A DNA stretch of 64,000 nt, taken from Escherichia virus KFS-EC3. Positions 16,670 through 27,564 of the stretch are shown here, piece by piece. The stretch lies in the sequence record MZ065353.1. The stretch is one strand, 5' to 3'. Within the stretch, counting starts at the first letter, position 1. Every line of letters starts with the position of its first letter. Under the pieces are notes generated by a model that was not told where the DNA came from, searched no databases, and was given only the letters and a program-made list of their open reading frames with translations. The position numbers and the translations under genes were made by a program.

Positions 16670-16985
16670 TATTCGTCCGGTCGATGAGACCGGTCTTTCA
16701 GAAAAAGAACTTTCAATTAAGAAAGAAAAGGATGAAATTGCAAAGCTTCTTGACCGCCAAGAAAATGGATTTATTATTGAAAAAATGGTAGAAGAGTTTG
16801 GAATGAGTTATCTTGAAGCAACTACTGCGTTTTTGGAAGAAAATTCAATTCCTGAAACTCAATTTGCTAAATTTATTCCTTCAGGTATAATTGAAAAAAT
16901 TCAGTCAGAAGCTATCGACGAAAATCTTTTACGTCCTTCTGTTGTTCGTTGTGAAAAAACTAATACATTAGATTTTCTACTATGA
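16647..16985 (+). CDS. 33: gp33 late transcription co-activator
   Basis: 112 aa from MTQFSLNDIRP; ORF-track start 16638 is a TTG extension. Confidence 0.92.
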   Translation: MTQFSLNDIRPVDETGLSEKELSIKKEKDEIAKLLDRQENGFIIEKMVEEFGMSYLEATTAFLEENSIPETQFAKFIPSGIIEKIQSEAIDENLLRPSVVRCEKTNTLDFLL

Positions 16986-17635
16986 TTAAACTCCGCATGC
17001 CTGCTGGTGGTGAAAGATACATTGATGGTAAATCAGTTTATAAATTATACTTAATGATAAAACAGCATATGAATGGAAAGTATGATGTAATTAAGTATAA
17101 TTGGTGCATGCGGGTGTCTGATGCCGCTTATCAAAAGCGAAGGGATAAGTATTTTTTCCAGAAGTTATCAGAAAAATATAAATTAAAGGAACTTGCTTTA
17201 ATCTTTATAAGCAATCTGGTTGCTAACCAAGATGCTTGGATTGGTGACATCTCTGACGCTGATGCACTTGTGTTTTATCGTGAATATATCGGACGCTTAA
17301 AGCAAATTAAATTTAAGTTTGAAGAAGATATTCGCAACATTTATTATTTTAGTAAAAAAGTTGAAGTTTCTGCTTTTAAAGAAATCTTTGAGTATAATCC
17401 AAAAGTCCAATCAAGTTATATTTTTAAACTTCTTCAGTCGAATATAATTTCTTTTGAAACATTCATTTTGCTTGATTCGTTTTTAAATATAATTGATAAA
17501 CATGATGAACAAACCGATAATTTGGTTTGGAATAATTATTCTATAAAGTTAAAGGCTTATAGAAAAATTTTAAATATTGATTCACAGAAAGCTAAAAGTG
17601 TTTTTATTGAAACTGTGAAATCTTGTAAGTATTAA
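16982..17635 (+). CDS. 59: gp59 helicase loader
   Basis: 217 aa, matches T4 gp59. Confidence 0.95.
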   Translation: MIKLRMPAGGERYIDGKSVYKLYLMIKQHMNGKYDVIKYNWCMRVSDAAYQKRRDKYFFQKLSEKYKLKELALIFISNLVANQDAWIGDISDADALVFYREYIGRLKQIKFKFEEDIRNIYYFSKKVEVSAFKEIFEYNPKVQSSYIFKLLQSNIISFETFILLDSFLNIIDKHDEQTDNLVWNNYSIKLKAYRKILNIDSQKAKSVFIETVKSCKY

Positions 17636-17735: not shown

Positions 17736-18644
17736 ATGTTTAAACGTAAATCTACTGCTGAACTCGCTGCGCAAATGGCTAAACTGGCTGGAAATAAAGG
17801 TGGTTTTTCTTCTGAAGATAAAGGCGAGTGGAAACTGAAACTCGATAATGCGGGTAACGGTCAAGCAGTAATTCGTTTTCTTCCGTCTAAAAATGATGAA
17901 CAAGCACCATTCGCAATTCTTGTAAATCACGGTTTCAAGAAAAATGGTAAATGGTATATTGAAAATTGTTCATCTACCCACGGTGATTACGATTCTTGCC
18001 CAGTATGTCAGTACATCAGTAAAAATGATCTGTACAATACCGATAATAAAGAATACGGTCTTGTTAAACGTAAAACTTCTTACTGGGCTAATATTCTTGT
18101 TGTAAAAGACCCGGCTGCTCCAGAAAATGAAGGTAAAGTATTTAAATATCGTTTCGGTAAAAAAATCTGGGATAAAATCAATGCAATGATTGCAGTTGAT
18201 GTTGAAATGGGTGAAACTCCGGTTGATGTAACTTGTCCGTGGGAAGGTGCTAACTTTGTATTGAAAGTTAAACAAGTTTCTGGTTTTAGTAACTACGACG
18301 AATCTAAATTCTTGAATCAATCTGCGATTCCAAACATTGATGATGAATCTTTCCAGAAAGAACTGTTCGAACAAATGGTTGATCTTTCTGAAATGACTTC
18401 TAAAGATAAATTCAAATCGTTTGAAGAACTGAATACTAAATTCAGTCAAGTTATGGGAACTGCTGTTATGGGTGGTGCCGCGGCAACTGCCGCTAAGAAA
18501 GCTGATAAAGTTGCTGATGATTTGGATGCATTCAATGTTGATGACTTCAATACAAAAACTGAAGATGATTTTATGAGCTCAAGCTCTGGCAGTTCATCTA
18601 GTGCTGATGACACGGACCTGGATGACCTTTTGAATGACCTTTAA
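17736..18644 (+). CDS. 32: gp32 single-stranded DNA-binding protein
   Basis: 302 aa, matches T4 gp32 including acidic Ser/Asp-rich C-terminus. Confidence 0.97.
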
Positions 18645-19816: not shown

Positions 19817-20625
<809 letters not shown>

Positions 20626-20644
20626 AATAACACTGGCTGAAAAT

Positions 20645-20992
20645 ATGAATTTTAATTATTACCCTATTCTATTAGAAAAAGACGCGAAACAACCAAAATG
20701 GCAGGGTCCTCAGTTTATTAAAGGCGTCTATCAATTAGTAGTTCCTAAAGACAAAATTTATAGCAGTTGTTTCACTGAATCCGCTTGTAGTATTTTTGGT
20801 AATAGTTCTCCGTATTGGAATTTTGATATAAAACTTGACAGAAATATCGATATTTGGTTGAAAGCTATGGATATCGGCAATATCACGTTTGATGAGAATA
20901 ATTATCATATTATTGGTCGCTTTTCCAAGCGTGGTAAAGAATTATATTTTACGCCTGAAATTGAAAGAAAATTTGATGCTAAACCGTATTAA
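20645..20992 (+). CDS. hypothetical protein inserted between frd and td
   Basis: 115-aa ORF; no recognisable domain; in T4 frd and td are reported to overlap. Confidence 0.55.
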   Translation: MNFNYYPILLEKDAKQPKWQGPQFIKGVYQLVVPKDKIYSSCFTESACSIFGNSSPYWNFDIKLDRNIDIWLKAMDIGNITFDENNYHIIGRFSKRGKELYFTPEIERKFDAKPY

Positions 20993-20995
20993 TTA

Positions 20996-21020
20996 TTAGC
21001 TTCATAAAATGTATTATAAT
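20996..21020 (+). promoter_or_regulatory. putative promoter upstream of td (TATAAT -10 with imperfect MotA-like box)
   Basis: AGCTTCA about 10 nt upstream of TATAAT; weak match to MotA box. Confidence 0.3.
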
Positions 21021-21036
21021 TTATATAAGGTACTAA

Positions 21037-21897
21037 ATGAAACAATACCAAGATTTAATTAAAGACATTTTTGAAAATGGCTATGAAACCGATGACCGAA
21101 CGGGCACAGGAACAATTGCTTTGTTCGGTACTAAATTACGCTGGGATTTAACTAAAGGTTTTCCTGCAGTAACAACTAAGAAGCTCGCCTGGAATGCATG
21201 TATTTCTGAGTTACTATGGTTTCTGTCAGGAAGTACTAACGTAAATGATTTACGTCAACGTACTCATGGATCTTTAATTGCAGGAAAAACAATTTGGGAT
21301 GAAAACTACGAAAACCAGGCCAAAGACTTAGGTTATCATAGCGGTGAACTTGGTCCAATTTACGGAAAACAGTGGCGTGATTTTGGTGGTGTAGACCAAA
21401 TTGTAGAAGTTGTTAATCGTATTAAAACATTTCCCAATGATAGACGTCAAATTGTGTCGGCATGGAATCCAGCTGAACTCAAGCAGATGGCATTACCTCC
21501 TTGTCATATGTTCTATCAGTTTAATGTGCGTAACGGATATCTCGATCTCCAATGGTATCAACGTTCGGTAGATGTTTTCCTCGGTCTTCCATTTAACATC
21601 GCGAGTTATGCTGCTCTTTTACATATTGTTGCTGACATGTGTGAACTAGTTCCGGGCGATTTGGTATTCTCGGGTGGTAATACACACATTTATTCTAATC
21701 ATATTGAGCAATGCAAAGAGATATTAAATAGAACTCCTATGGATCTATGCAAACTCAGTATTAATTGGCCTAATGGATTCAGTCAATGCGATACTGAAAC
21801 TCAGATGTATTGGTTAACTGAATATATGACAGCACGGGATTTCGTTCTCAAAGATTATCAGTCCCACGGTGTCCTGAAAGGAAAGATGGCGGTGTAA
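21037..21897 (+). CDS. td: thymidylate synthase, intron-less
   Basis: 286 aa uninterrupted ORF matching T4 TS (spliced form). Confidence 0.97.
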   Translation: MKQYQDLIKDIFENGYETDDRTGTGTIALFGTKLRWDLTKGFPAVTTKKLAWNACISELLWFLSGSTNVNDLRQRTHGSLIAGKTIWDENYENQAKDLGYHSGELGPIYGKQWRDFGGVDQIVEVVNRIKTFPNDRRQIVSAWNPAELKQMALPPCHMFYQFNVRNGYLDLQWYQRSVDVFLGLPFNIASYAALLHIVADMCELVPGDLVFSGGNTHIYSNHIEQCKEILNRTPMDLCKLSINWPNGFSQCDTETQMYWLTEYMTARDFVLKDYQSHGVLKGKMAV

Positions 21898-22464: not shown

Positions 22465-24719
22465 TTAATGTTATCAAAAGTAGTGGTGTTTCTCAGAGCT
22501 TTGACCCGCAAAAAATTATTAAAGTTTTATCTTGGGCAGCTGAAGGAACATCTGTAGATCCTTATGAATTATATGAAAATATTAAATCATATCTCCGTGA
22601 TGGAATGACCACTGATGACATTCAAACCATTGTAATTAAGGCTGCTGCGAATTCTATTTCAGTTGAAGAGCCTGATTATCAATATGTAGCTGCACGGTGT
22701 TTAATGTTCGCTCTTCGTAAGCATGTTTACGGGCAGTATGAGCCCCGTTCATTTATTGACCATATTTCTTACTGTGTAAATGAAGGTAAATATGACCCTG
22801 AATTGTTGTCAAAATATTCTGCTGAAGAAATTACATTTTTAGAATCAAAAATTAAGCATGAGCGGGATATGGAATTTACTTATTCCGGGGCGATGCAATT
22901 AAAAGAAAAATATCTAGTTAAAGATAAAACCACTGGTCAAATTTATGAAACTCCACAGTTTGCATTTATGACTATTGGAATGGCATTGCATCAAGATGAA
23001 CCTGTTGATAGATTAAAACACGTTATTCGTTTTTATGAAGCAGTATCTACTCGACAGATTTCATTGCCAACTCCTATTATGGCTGGCTGTCGTACTCCGA
23101 CTCGACAGTTTAGTTCATGCGTTGTTATTGAGGCAGGTGATTCGCTGAAGTCTATCAATAAGGCTTCCGCTTCAATTGTTGAATATATCTCCAAACGCGC
23201 TGGAATTGGTATTAACGTTGGTATGATTCGTGCCGAAGGTTCTAAGATTGGCACAGGTGAAGTACGCCATACTGGTGTTATTCCTTTCTGGAAACATTTT
23301 CAGACTGCTGTTAAATCATGCTCACAGGGTGGAATTCGTGGCGGCGCTGCTACTGCTTATTATCCTATTTGGCATTTGGAAGTTGAAAATCTTCTCGTTT
23401 TGAAAAATAACAAAGGTGTAGAAGAAAACCGTATCCGTCATATGGATTATGGCGTTCAACTGAATGACCTAATGATGGAACGATTCGGAAAGAATGATTA
23501 CATTACTTTGTTCAGTCCGCATGAAATGGGTGGCGAACTTTATTATTCTTATTTTAAAGACCAAGACCGTTTCCGTGAATTGTACGAAGCCGCAGAAAAA
23601 GACCCTAATATTCGTAAAAAGCGTATTAAAGCCCGTGAACTGTTTGAATTGCTCATGACTGAACGCTCAGGAACAGCAAGGATTTATGTACAGTTCATAG
23701 ATAATACGAATAACTATACTCCGTTTATTCGTGAAAAGGCACCTATTCGTCAGAGTAACTTGTGTTGTGAAATTGCTATTCCAACAAATGATGTGAATAG
23801 TCCTGATGCTGAAATTGGATTGTGTACGTTATCTGCATTTGTGTTAGATAACTTTGACTGGCAAGACCAAGATAAAATTAATGAATTGGCAGAAGTCCAA
23901 GTTCGTGCTCTTGATAATCTTTTGGACTACCAAGGATATCCAGTTCCTGAAGCAGAAAAAGCTAAAAAGCGTCGAAACCTTGGTGTAGGTGTTACTAACT
24001 ATGCAGCTTGGCTGGCAAGTAATTTTGCTTCTTATGAAGATGCTAACGATTTAACACATGAACTATTTGAGAGATTACAGTATGGACTCATTAAAGCATC
24101 CATTAAGCTCGCCAAAGAAAAAGGACCTTGCGAATATTATTCAGACACTCGTTGGTCTCGAGGCGAATTACCTATCGACTGGTACAATAAAAAGATTGAC
24201 CAAATCGCAGCTCCAAAATACGTTTGTGACTGGTCGTCGCTGCGGGAAGACCTTAAGCTCTTTGGCATCCGTAATAGCACATTATCAGCACTTATGCCAT
24301 GTGAGTCATCTTCCCAAGTTTCTAACAGTACAAACGGTATCGAGCCTCCACGTGGACCAGTCTCTGTTAAAGAATCAAAAGAGGGCTCCTTTAATCAAGT
24401 CGTGCCCAATATTGAGCATAACATAGACCTGTATGATTATACGTGGAAATTAGCTAAGAAAGGTAATAAACCTTATCTTACGCAAGTAGCTATTATGCTG
24501 AAATGGGTATGTCAATCAGCTTCAGCGAATACATATTATGACCCGCAGATTTTTCCAAAAGGAAAGGTTCCAATGTCAATAATGATTGATGACCTTTTGT
24601 ATTTTTGGTATTTTGGCGGAAAAAATTTCTATTATCATAATACCCGTGATGGTTCTGGTACTGATGATTATGAAATAGAAACTCCAAAAGCTGAAGATTG
24701 TTCATCCTGTAAATTATGA
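22455..24719 (+). CDS. nrdA: aerobic ribonucleotide reductase large subunit
   Basis: 754 aa, T4 NrdA length, ATP-cone N-terminus. Confidence 0.97.
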   Translation: MQLINVIKSSGVSQSFDPQKIIKVLSWAAEGTSVDPYELYENIKSYLRDGMTTDDIQTIVIKAAANSISVEEPDYQYVAARCLMFALRKHVYGQYEPRSFIDHISYCVNEGKYDPELLSKYSAEEITFLESKIKHERDMEFTYSGAMQLKEKYLVKDKTTGQIYETPQFAFMTIGMALHQDEPVDRLKHVIRFYEAVSTRQISLPTPIMAGCRTPTRQFSSCVVIEAGDSLKSINKASASIVEYISKRAGIGINVGMIRAEGSKIGTGEVRHTGVIPFWKHFQTAVKSCSQGGIRGGAATAYYPIWHLEVENLLVLKNNKGVEENRIRHMDYGVQLNDLMMERFGKNDYITLFSPHEMGGELYYSYFKDQDRFRELYEAAEKDPNIRKKRIKARELFELLMTERSGTARIYVQFIDNTNNYTPFIREKAPIRQSNLCCEIAIPTNDVNSPDAEIGLCTLSAFVLDNFDWQDQDKINELAEVQVRALDNLLDYQGYPVPEAEKAKKRRNLGVGVTNYAAWLASNFASYEDANDLTHELFERLQYGLIKASIKLAKEKGPCEYYSDTRWSRGELPIDWYNKKIDQIAAPKYVCDWSSLREDLKLFGIRNSTLSALMPCESSSQVSNSTNGIEPPRGPVSVKESKEGSFNQVVPNIEHNIDLYDYTWKLAKKGNKPYLTQVAIMLKWVCQSASANTYYDPQIFPKGKVPMSIMIDDLLYFWYFGGKNFYYHNTRDGSGTDDYEIETPKAEDCSSCKL

Positions 24720-24770
24720 TATAATTTGACTCACGGACGAGTCACTATCTATTAACTAAGCGGAAAATTT

Positions 24771-25949
24771 ATGAGCACAGTTTTTAATACAAATCCAGTT
24801 GATGTTTTAAAAGAACCTATGTTCTTCGGTTCAGGTCTTGGTATTGCGCGTTATGATATTCAACGTCATAAAGTTTTTGAAGATTTAACCGAAAAGCAAT
24901 TGTCATTTTTCTGGCGTCCTGAAGAAGTAAACTTGATGATGGATGCTGCACAATTTAACAAGCTTCCTCAGTATCAGCAAGATATTTTTACTAATAACCT
25001 GAAGTATCAATCACTTCTAGATAGCATTCAGGGTCGTGCACCTTCTGCTGTACTTATGTCATTAATTTCAGACCCAAGCCTTGATACATGGGTTGCTACA
25101 TGGACTTTTAGTGAAACTATTCACAGCCGTTCATATACTCATATTATGCGGAATCTTTATACTGATCCGTCAAAAGTATTTGATGAGATTGTATTAGATA
25201 AAGCTATAATGAAACGTGCTGAATCTATTGGTCGTTATTATGATGATGTTATTAAGAAAACTAGATATTGGCAGAATGCTAAAGCTGATATTGAGTACCA
25301 AAAAGAAATTAACGCAGACGAAGATGATATTAAAGATGCCATAGAGCATGAAATGTATTGGAAACGTGAACTAATGCGCTCTCTTTACCTCTGCCTGCAC
25401 GTAATCAACGCACTGGAAGCTATTCGTTTTTACGTATCTTTCGCATGTACCTTTAACTTCCATAAAAACATGGAAATCATGGAAGGTAATGCCAAGATTA
25501 TGAAGTTCATTGCACGTGATGAACAGCTTCACCTTAAAGGCACCCAATATATTATTCGTCAACTTCAACTTGGCACTGATGGTGATGAATGGGTTAAAAT
25601 CGCCCAAGAGTGTGAACAAGAAGCAGTTGATATTTTCATGGAAGTTAACCGTCAAGAAAAAGACTGGGCAGTTCATTTATTTAAAGATGGCGATGTTCCT
25701 GGATTAAATACAAATAGCATGTGGAGCTTTATTGATTACTTAACTGTATCTCGTATGAAACAGTGCGGTCTTCCATGCCCAATTACCGATGCTCCGGTTA
25801 AACATCCGTATCCTTGGATTCGTGAATATCTTAATTCTGATAATGTTCAATCCGCGCCGCAAGAAGTAGAACTGTCATCTTATCTTGTAGCACAGATTGA
25901 TAATGATGTTGATGATAAAGTTATGATGAGTTTTAAAAAATATTTTTAA
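24771..25949 (+). CDS. nrdB: ribonucleotide reductase small subunit, intron-less
   Basis: 392 aa uninterrupted; only 51 nt after nrdA. Confidence 0.97.
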   Translation: MSTVFNTNPVDVLKEPMFFGSGLGIARYDIQRHKVFEDLTEKQLSFFWRPEEVNLMMDAAQFNKLPQYQQDIFTNNLKYQSLLDSIQGRAPSAVLMSLISDPSLDTWVATWTFSETIHSRSYTHIMRNLYTDPSKVFDEIVLDKAIMKRAESIGRYYDDVIKKTRYWQNAKADIEYQKEINADEDDIKDAIEHEMYWKRELMRSLYLCLHVINALEAIRFYVSFACTFNFHKNMEIMEGNAKIMKFIARDEQLHLKGTQYIIRQLQLGTDGDEWVKIAQECEQEAVDIFMEVNRQEKDWAVHLFKDGDVPGLNTNSMWSFIDYLTVSRMKQCGLPCPITDAPVKHPYPWIREYLNSDNVQSAPQEVELSSYLVAQIDNDVDDKVMMSFKKYF

Positions 25950-25953
25950 GGAG

Positions 25954-25976
25954 TGGGCCGCAAGGCCCATTTTATT
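25954..25976 (+). promoter_or_regulatory. hairpin (GCAA loop) + T-tract between nrdB stop and denA start
   Basis: UGGGCC-GCAA-GGCCCA lies between AAGGAG and the denA ATG; may act as terminator and/or bring the SD close to the start. Confidence 0.45.

Positions 25977-27564
<1,588 letters not shown>

Follow-up and report, generated by a model that had tools for sequence, protein, structure and literature searches.

A conserved small gene of an orphan family in the frd–td slot of Escherichia virus KFS-EC3, probably lost from T4

The genes frd and td encode two consecutive enzymes of the thymidylate cycle, dihydrofolate reductase (DHFR) and thymidylate synthase (TS). In bacteriophage T4 (NC_000866), with frd at 145109–145690 and td ending at 145112, the two genes share a 4-nt ATGA overlap, whereas in Escherichia virus KFS-EC3 they lie 411 bp apart (20626–21036), separated by an open reading frame (ORF) of 115 codons. 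What is this ORF, and did KFS-EC3 gain it or T4 lose it? The original prediction, made from the letters alone, had correctly described both the T4 overlap and a separation of about 410 bp, and took the ORF for an accessory insertion in an otherwise conserved operon. The window analysed here comprises 64,000 nt of record MZ065353.1, and coordinates are window positions. The ORF starts with ATG, occupies 20645–20992 on the plus strand, and encodes a protein with the N-terminus MNFNYYPILLEKDAKQPKWQGPQF. Our best overall explanation, held with a probability of about 0.7, is that it is a genuine and constrained gene for a small, non-enzymatic protein, that this protein belongs to an orphan family which is an ancient occupant of the frd–td slot in enterobacterial T4-like phages, and that T4, which lacks the gene, probably lost it.

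A search with the 115-aa protein (tblastn) returned 554 phage records carrying it or a homologue: 265 at 99% identity or more, 97 at 90–99% and 192, from other genera, below 60%. About 362 records thus carry the protein at 90% identity or above, and it is 100% identical in T2, T6, RB14 and RB7. Between the window and the phages T2, AugustSocin and Lutter, the ORF differs by 15–18 synonymous and at most one non-synonymous substitution, corresponding to a synonymous rate (dS) of 0.29–0.36, a non-synonymous rate (dN) of at most 0.004 and a ratio of the two (omega) of at most 0.01. For frd, omega was 0.17–0.21 in the window comparisons and 0.02–0.21 over all pairs; for the first 546 nt of td it was 0.07–0.12. 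Within Tequatrovirus, purifying selection on the ORF is tighter than on either flanking gene. Under neutrality, 15 synonymous changes out of 15 would be expected with a chance of about 9e-12. A chance ORF in a non-coding spacer, for which only the missing functional annotation and a weak Shine-Dalgarno sequence (GGCTGA) speak, is hardly conceivable in the face of differences to T2, AugustSocin and Lutter that are all, or all but one, synonymous, of homologues at 20–66% identity that keep the conserved motifs, and of a confident AlphaFold model (predicted local distance difference test, pLDDT, 92.7). The conservation analysis, with its 554 records and synonymous-only substitution pattern, accordingly gave no indication of non-coding DNA, and this pattern of sequence change identifies the ORF as a genuine gene.

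The gene is not novel. It has already been deposited, as a hypothetical protein, for T2, T6 and hundreds of T-even phages, with inconsistent annotation across GenBank. It is unannotated in the old T2 fragment AY310907, and the RB14 copy is labelled RB32ORF229c. The product name in three BASEL records (AugustSocin, WilhelmHis and AndreasVesalius) is ‘putative homing endonuclease’, and in APTC-EC-2A, IsaacDaniel, JLBYU31 and HMD-9 the features under the match are called ‘(putative) dihydrofolate reductase’. No mention of the ORF in the literature was found under the identifiers tried, the phrase ‘frd-td’ being swamped by papers on Friedreich ataxia.

The protein affiliates with PHROG 1928, a group of ‘unknown function’ (E 8.4e-36; residues 4–111 against profile positions 2–125 of 126). 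The hidden Markov model (HMM) of the family scored the window ORF with 166 bits and, in a search of 1.84 billion representative proteins, retrieved only 41 clusters, nearly all of stand-alone proteins of 95–139 aa. Two matches (P0030 and P0044) were rejected as spurious, being Ig-like and PA14 repeat proteins aligned on short beta stretches. All 18 contexts examined, which span Tequatrovirus, Kanagawavirus, Jiaodavirus, Roskildevirus, Moonvirus, Klebsiella and Serratia phages and metagenomic contigs and thereby at least seven genera, place the family between the DHFR and TS genes. Homologues of 30–46% identity directly follow frd in Kanagawavirus (Kosakonia 305, CIP9), Jiaodavirus (Mineola), Roskildevirus (Cronus), Moonvirus (CF1) and Klebsiella phage kv_tblp8; two metagenomic relatives of 63–66% identity occupy the same slot, and so do all six more distant members (21–33% identity). 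The family motifs tested (Q-x-K-W, HG(I/V)Y, GN and (I/V)GRFxKxGxxxxF) are represented in the window protein by Q16-P-K-W19, K-G27-V-Y29, G78-N79 and I-G91-R-F93-S-K95-R-G97...F102.

The slot also houses relatives of a second type. In Kanagawavirus, Moonvirus, kv_tblp8, Serratia phage 92A1 and Erwinia phage Cronus a second small ORF of 113–144 aa, here called B, accompanies the homologue of the 115-aa protein, called A. B proteins share with A the QKKW near the N-terminus and a C-terminal GRFxKxGSxxxF, and differ from it by an insert of about 20 residues (PTIxxYKxNP...) after QKKW. Aligned with hhalign, the A and B profiles matched with a probability of 98.8% (E 1e-16); an HMM made of B proteins only detected the window ORF at E 1e-8, and Foldseek matched the window model to the 144-aa B protein of Cronus. 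These profile comparisons show A and B to be paralogous subfamilies. One metagenomic contig (L014) has the array frd-A-B-C-td, its A being 63% identical to the window protein; the 64-kb window holds neither a B copy nor any other paralogue. A fusion protein that seemed to offer a ‘Rosetta stone’ clue (P0012, 195 aa; L020 3001–3588, OR941409.1) was uninformative. It joins an unrelated N-terminus to the last 35–50 residues of a Jiaodavirus-type homologue, on a contig in which td is split and nrdA inverted, and OR941409.1 is probably a rearranged or mis-assembled genome.

The small ORFs are tightly packed between their neighbours. The small ORF that comes first after frd has its ATG 1–23 nt inside the frd 3′ end in 11 outgroup loci, and the stop codon of the last one overlaps the td start in most outgroup loci examined; overlap with both flanking genes was found in most of the relatives at 20–66% identity and of the B subfamily that were examined. 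Identity between the window and other genera amounts to 31–46% for A, 46–50% for frd and 71–79% for td. The divergence of A is thus of the same order as that of frd, which fits a long co-residence with the flanking genes.

With the T4 junction as query, 514 records proved to have the T4-like frd 3′ end in common, and among them the slot occurs in three alleles. Allele A, the 115-aa ORF, is present in about 362 records including the window, T2 and T6, that is, in some 70% of Tequatrovirus-like records. Allele C, an unrelated ORF of 68 aa that overlaps both frd and td, is found in about 135 (e.g. UTI-E4 and PYPS2T). The remainder, roughly 17 of 514, have nothing in the slot (T4, vB_EcoM_112, SG1 and F1), and the junction of RB69 (Mosigvirus) is empty too. 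Since T4 truly lacks the 115-aa ORF, the indel relative to T4 is real, and the gene is accessory as predicted, T4, RB69 and the allele-C phages doing without it. Misleading is the talk of an insertion into an otherwise conserved operon, because the A family is an old resident of the slot, as its 18 contexts attest.

The ORF of allele C shares 68–79% identity with the one immediately preceding td in CIP9 and kv_tblp8; in the loci L010 and L011 it lies at 2599–2805 and 2596–2802, respectively. Relatives at 40–44% identity occur in phAPEC8-like phages (Phapecoctavirus), so that its range, in contrast to that of the A/B family, extends beyond the slot. The PYPS2T label ‘flagellar biosynthesis protein’ for this ORF is unsupported, with no match in NCBIfam or PADLOC. 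A tie between absence of the 115-aa ORF and co-conversion with the td intron and its endonuclease gene I-TevI was rejected from the combinations of intron and allele: Lutter has allele A, the intron and I-TevI, in T4 and F1 the intron is present and the ORF missing, and UTI-E4 has the intron with allele C. The 5′ half of td in the window (21037–21580) is a mosaic. Nucleotides 1–150 are 97–99% identical to other A-allele phages, and nucleotides 150–540 only 82–86% identical to the T2/T4-type and Lutter-type td genes, which suggests a recombination breakpoint near nucleotide 150 and the existence in Tequatrovirus of three or more td haplotypes that have diverged deeply.

How the empty junction and the A allele are related can be read from a 15-nt direct repeat, whose copies are identical at 13 of 15 positions and spaced by 415 bp (repeat search). 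The left copy, TAAATGAAATAACAC (20619–20633, plus strand), includes the frd stop codon and a vestigial td-like start, ATG AAA TAA (20622–20630); the right copy, TAAATGAAACAATAC (21034–21048, plus strand), includes the td start codon. The junction of T4, F1 and RB69 reads TATAAATGAAACAATACC and equals the left flank of the window joined to the right repeat copy. T4 and the window share the flanking genes, their last and first codons and the promoter Ptd. The 415 bp comprising the ORF and a conserved stretch of 39 nt before td are absent from T4, whose td, in contrast to the window td, carries the intron with I-TevI. Judged by its sequence, the T4 junction has the form that a recombination of the two repeats should produce.

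The A allele has a history of its own. Thirteen loci, compared at the 3′ end of frd and the start of the ORF, indicate that TGGCTGAAAAT (20634–20644, plus strand) is a remnant of an ancestral frd tail and ORF start; the matching sequence in the metagenomic relative L015, ATGGTGAAAAACGTG, codes for M-V-K-N-V of the ORF and overlaps frd. Outgroup frd genes end in E(S/T)VY plus a tail of 2–8 residues, and the ATG of the family lies inside this tail. Where L015 reads GTAT ATG GTG AAA AAC GTG AAT TTT, the window has GTATAT[AAATGAAATAACACT]GGCTGAAAAT ATG AAT TTT. Read from this alignment, a td-start-like block of 15 nt supplied the VYK* ending of the window frd, abolished the former start of the ORF, so that the present ATG stands at the position of Val5 in L015, and left the vestigial ATG AAA TAA behind.

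The indel most likely reflects loss in T4, not gain in KFS-EC3, and a deletion mediated by the repeats is the probable route. Loss is favoured because the empty state is rare, because the 5′ end of the T4 td matches A-allele and not allele-C phages at megablast level, and because T4 and F1 resemble each other in the flanks no more than they resemble other alleles, as would be the case for recurrent deletion. Several points weigh against this polarity and leave it unsettled. With the td-like block at its left junction, the A allele is itself scarred by recombination, the scar consisting of ATG AAA TAA followed by the older frd-tail remnant; the empty junction of T4 recurs in RB69, a member of another genus; and the mosaic nature of the flanks prevents a rooting of the alleles, an attempt to do so by flanking-gene similarity having failed with frd and td mosaic and the allele type independent of them. 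The rival account is a recent gain, in which the ancestor of Tequatrovirus and Mosigvirus had the ATGA overlap and the cassette was re-inserted, perhaps at an early stage of the Tequatrovirus lineage, from another T4-like phage by an illegitimate recombination that duplicated about 15 nt of the td start. The left repeat (ATG AAA TAA CAC) is one transition from the td start (ATG AAA CAA TAC) and has the look of an inactivated td start, the remnant of a frd tail and ORF start of donor type follows just downstream, and the empty junction of RB69 is identical although its frd is only 58% identical. Given the shared ATGA, at least nine matches in the other 11 positions have by our own estimate a chance of about 5e-4, so that the repeat needs a historical explanation. 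We nevertheless regard a recent gain as unlikely: there is no transposase, integrase, nuclease or terminal inverted repeat, the family was found only in this slot in all 18 contexts, the empty junction is rare, and the flank relations of T4 and F1 fit recurrent repeat-mediated deletion at least as well. As to the marks of a mobile cassette in general, flanking direct repeats are present, but a mobility enzyme and flanking inverted repeats are absent, and the ORF has one place per genome in the 554 records. Even if the cassette had been gained recently, it would be a returning resident of the slot and not a foreign accessory gene.

The protein has a mass of 13.6 kDa and a pI of 8.5, the pI ranging from 8.0 to 9.4 across seven family members. 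In an alignment of 44 members, W19, G91, K95 and G97 are invariant and Q16, G27, Y29, F93 and F102 nearly so, and no His, Asp, Glu or Cys is conserved. The protein had been predicted to contain no recognisable motif, and PHROG 1928 indeed remained its only match. Pfam gave none for the window protein even at E-values up to 10 and none at meaningful E-values for any of the 44 members, and searches of NCBIfam, PADLOC and PDB sequence profiles with the 115-aa protein were empty. The lack of any nuclease or enzyme signature is shown, and with the conservation pattern it speaks for a non-enzymatic protein. The AlphaFold model made from the 44-sequence alignment (predicted template modelling score 0.85) is a compact, beta-rich domain with a single helix (residues 68–76). 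Its secondary structure by DSSP (E6–12, E27–34, E62–64, H68–76, E80–82, E86–96, E99–104) follows a strand-helix-strand order compatible with the OB pattern. No significant PDB neighbour was found, and the predicted fold could be new.

What the protein does can be narrowed down to some extent. Its naming as a homing endonuclease in AugustSocin, WilhelmHis and AndreasVesalius might appear plausible for a free-standing gene present here and missing from T4, in a region where such genes abound (I-TevI, SegG and MobE in T4). Yet no GIY-YIG, HNH, LAGLIDADG, PD-(D/E)XK or other nuclease domain was detected (E up to 10 for the window protein and up to 1 for the 44 members), nor are acidic, His or Cys residues conserved. 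Its slot is fixed over at least seven genera and its divergence parallels that of the flanking genes, the opposite of a mobile gene, and the td intron with I-TevI occurs independently of the ORF, both being present in Lutter. A length of 115 aa is also below that of the known phage homing endonucleases. On these sequence features the endonuclease reading is effectively refuted. A tentative proposal is that the protein is a non-catalytic binding or adaptor protein which acts with the phage DHFR/TS module or the complex for deoxynucleoside triphosphate (dNTP) synthesis; under laboratory conditions the protein is dispensable. The proposal is suggested by the strict position, by the extreme conservation and by the fact that most relatives examined overlap both genes. 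The gene resembles the translationally coupled small subunits of metabolic operons in its place between the genes of two consecutive enzymes and in the small-ORF overlaps of most relatives examined; the bifunctional DHFR-TS of protozoa may serve as a functional analogy only, the protein here being dispensable. A narrower version, in which A and B would be dedicated partners of the thymidylate cycle, made in a fixed ratio with DHFR and TS and tethering or regulating these enzymes or linking them to the dNTP complex or to DNA, is doubtful. If true, six decades of T4 genetics would have missed such a partner for the reason that its gene happened to be lost from the T4 reference strain. Several circumstances count against the explanation as a whole or against a link to DHFR and TS in particular. 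The protein cannot be required for the function of either enzyme, because T4, RB69 and about 135 allele-C phages lack it. Position alone is weak evidence, because gene order is conserved throughout this genome arm, homologues of frd.3, frd.2 and frd.1 being likewise kept in order. In KFS-EC3 the translational overlaps are replaced by spacers of 19 and 44 nt, and promoter use in this phage is predicted by homology to T4.

Two other functions compete with that proposal. The protein might be an OB-fold-like nucleic-acid binder, for example a regulator acting on single-stranded DNA or RNA at replication or repair intermediates or on the frd/td mRNA. The predicted topology of beta strands, helix 68–76 and a beta hairpin points this way, as do the conserved aromatic and basic residues (W19, F93, F102, K95 and R92) and the basic pI of the seven members. 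With RPA, SSB, PriB, S1 and HIN domains counted among the closest known systems, this is a lead only and improbable as it stands: the PDB profile search by sequence was empty, and small beta barrels draw OB matches non-specifically. An equally speculative view is that of a host-takeover or anti-defence protein merely riding in the operon. Small, basic, non-enzymatic, early and dispensable proteins are usual among the accessory proteins of T-even phages, and the 115-aa protein, likely expressed before replication and documented across records as present or absent among close relatives, has this profile. Genes in an arms race, however, tend to diversify and move, whereas this one is extremely constant (omega at most 0.01; 265 records at 99% identity or more) and strictly fixed in position over deep divergence; a link in the literature was not found.

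The timing of expression depends on the promoters on either side of the ORF. In T4, the middle promoter Ptd has its start site at 145142 (Hinton's review, Table 1, PMC2988021), 30 nt upstream of the td ATG and inside the frd 3′ end. MotA-dependent middle promoters combine a MotA box, (a/t)(a/t)(a/t)TGCTTtA, with a TAnnnT −10 element at a distance of 12 ± 1 bp (PMC2988021). The counterpart of Ptd in the window (P1, 20558–20592, plus strand) lies in the frd 3′ end and agrees with this rule: a MotA-box-like AAATGGTTGA (20558–20567), a 12-bp spacer and TAAAAT (20580–20585), with a predicted start near 20592. The region differs from T4 by one base. In the window its predicted start is 53 nt upstream of the 115-aa ORF, and by sequence comparison the promoter known as Ptd faces this ORF, not td, in most T-even phages. 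A direct repeat of 20 nt (75% identical; 20561–20580 and 20855–20874) links the MotA-box region of P1 to a site inside the ORF; it is probably due to chance, no −10 element following the second copy.

A second promoter-like region with TATAAT had been predicted just before td. The hexamer is there (21015–21020) but by itself does not exceed chance, a lone TATAAT being expected about 0.6 times in 411 bp of the AT-rich window DNA by our own estimate; a generic sigma-70 scan gave no site at this position. More telling is the surrounding stretch of 39 nt (P2 region, 20998–21036, plus strand), identical in four phages that differ at about 25% of synonymous sites. Absence of any change has, again by our own estimate, a chance of about 1e-5 per phage pair, and this improbable invariance marks the stretch as functional. 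The region combines a MotA-box-like ATTAGCTTCA (20995–21004) with TAATTT (21017–21022) after 12 bp or with TATAAT after 10 bp, followed by a Shine-Dalgarno sequence AAGG (21027–21030). The Lutter record has a promoter annotated at this place. Transcription beginning near 21027 would give a leader no longer than about 10 nt, and the stretch may be regarded as a promoter candidate. In most relatives examined, DHFR, the small protein or proteins and TS would be made as one translationally coupled unit by way of the overlaps; in KFS-EC3 the spacers stand in their place. Downstream of the Ptd counterpart, the 115-aa gene would be prereplicative, transcribed from the middle promoter and by early read-through and co-expressed with frd and td.

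As a sequence feature the gene is ordinary, identical copies having been deposited in hundreds of T-even phages. What is added here is the slot-specific A/B family, the allele series, the history of the junction and the reassignment of the promoter. These correct the labels ‘homing endonuclease’ and ‘dihydrofolate reductase’ on the ORF or overlapping features in some GenBank records, the idea that the T4 frd/td overlap is the ancestral state, most relatives having small ORFs in the slot, and the naming of Ptd, which in most T-even phages sits before the 115-aa ORF. An orphan family that is confined to the frd–td slot, missing from T4, without recognisable fold or motif and, within Tequatrovirus, slower to evolve than either enzyme is a reasonable experimental target. 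If the protein is a partner of the thymidylate-synthesis machinery, it would be a new component of a classic enzyme complex; if not, it is one more conserved T-even gene of unknown function.

The surrounding arm is of T-even type, with the order gp59, gp32, three small frd.x ORFs, frd, 115-aa ORF, td, nrdA.2, nrdA.1, nrdA and nrdB. The gene frd (20044–20625, plus strand) encodes 193 aa ending in ...ESVYK*, matches Pfam DHFR_1 (E 3e-19) and is 93% identical to T4 frd at the protein level. The td gene (21037–21897, plus strand; 286 aa) is intron-less, without I-TevI, and covers the Pfam Thymidylat_synt profile completely (1–266/266, E 3e-95). The 115-aa ORF follows the frd stop after 19 nt and precedes td by 44 nt. 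Its GC content of 0.29–0.31 is like that of the neighbouring small ORFs, and this comparison gave no foreign composition signature. A search of the gap for RNA elements in Rfam gave only two sub-threshold matches, both to eukaryotic families and attributable to chance.

The mobile elements of this arm in T4 are missing from the window. The genes gp59 (16982–17635) and gp32 (17736–18644) are adjacent, without segG; neither td nor nrdB (24771–25949) is interrupted by its T4 intron with I-TevI or I-TevIII, respectively; and nrdA and nrdB are only 51 nt apart (24719–25949), which excludes mobE. Between frd.1 and frd, where the T4 gap is only 71 nt, the window has a further ORF of 76 aa (19817–20047) that is not in T4. 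It starts with GTG, its stop overlaps the frd start, and it has no Pfam match; ORFs of about 81 aa occupy this position in AugustSocin, F1, UTI-E4 and PYPS2T. After nrdB follows an ORF of 144 aa (25953–26387) with a GIY-YIG domain (E 5e-6); from its position, as in RB69, this is presumably the endonuclease II gene denA rather than a gene for a homing endonuclease.

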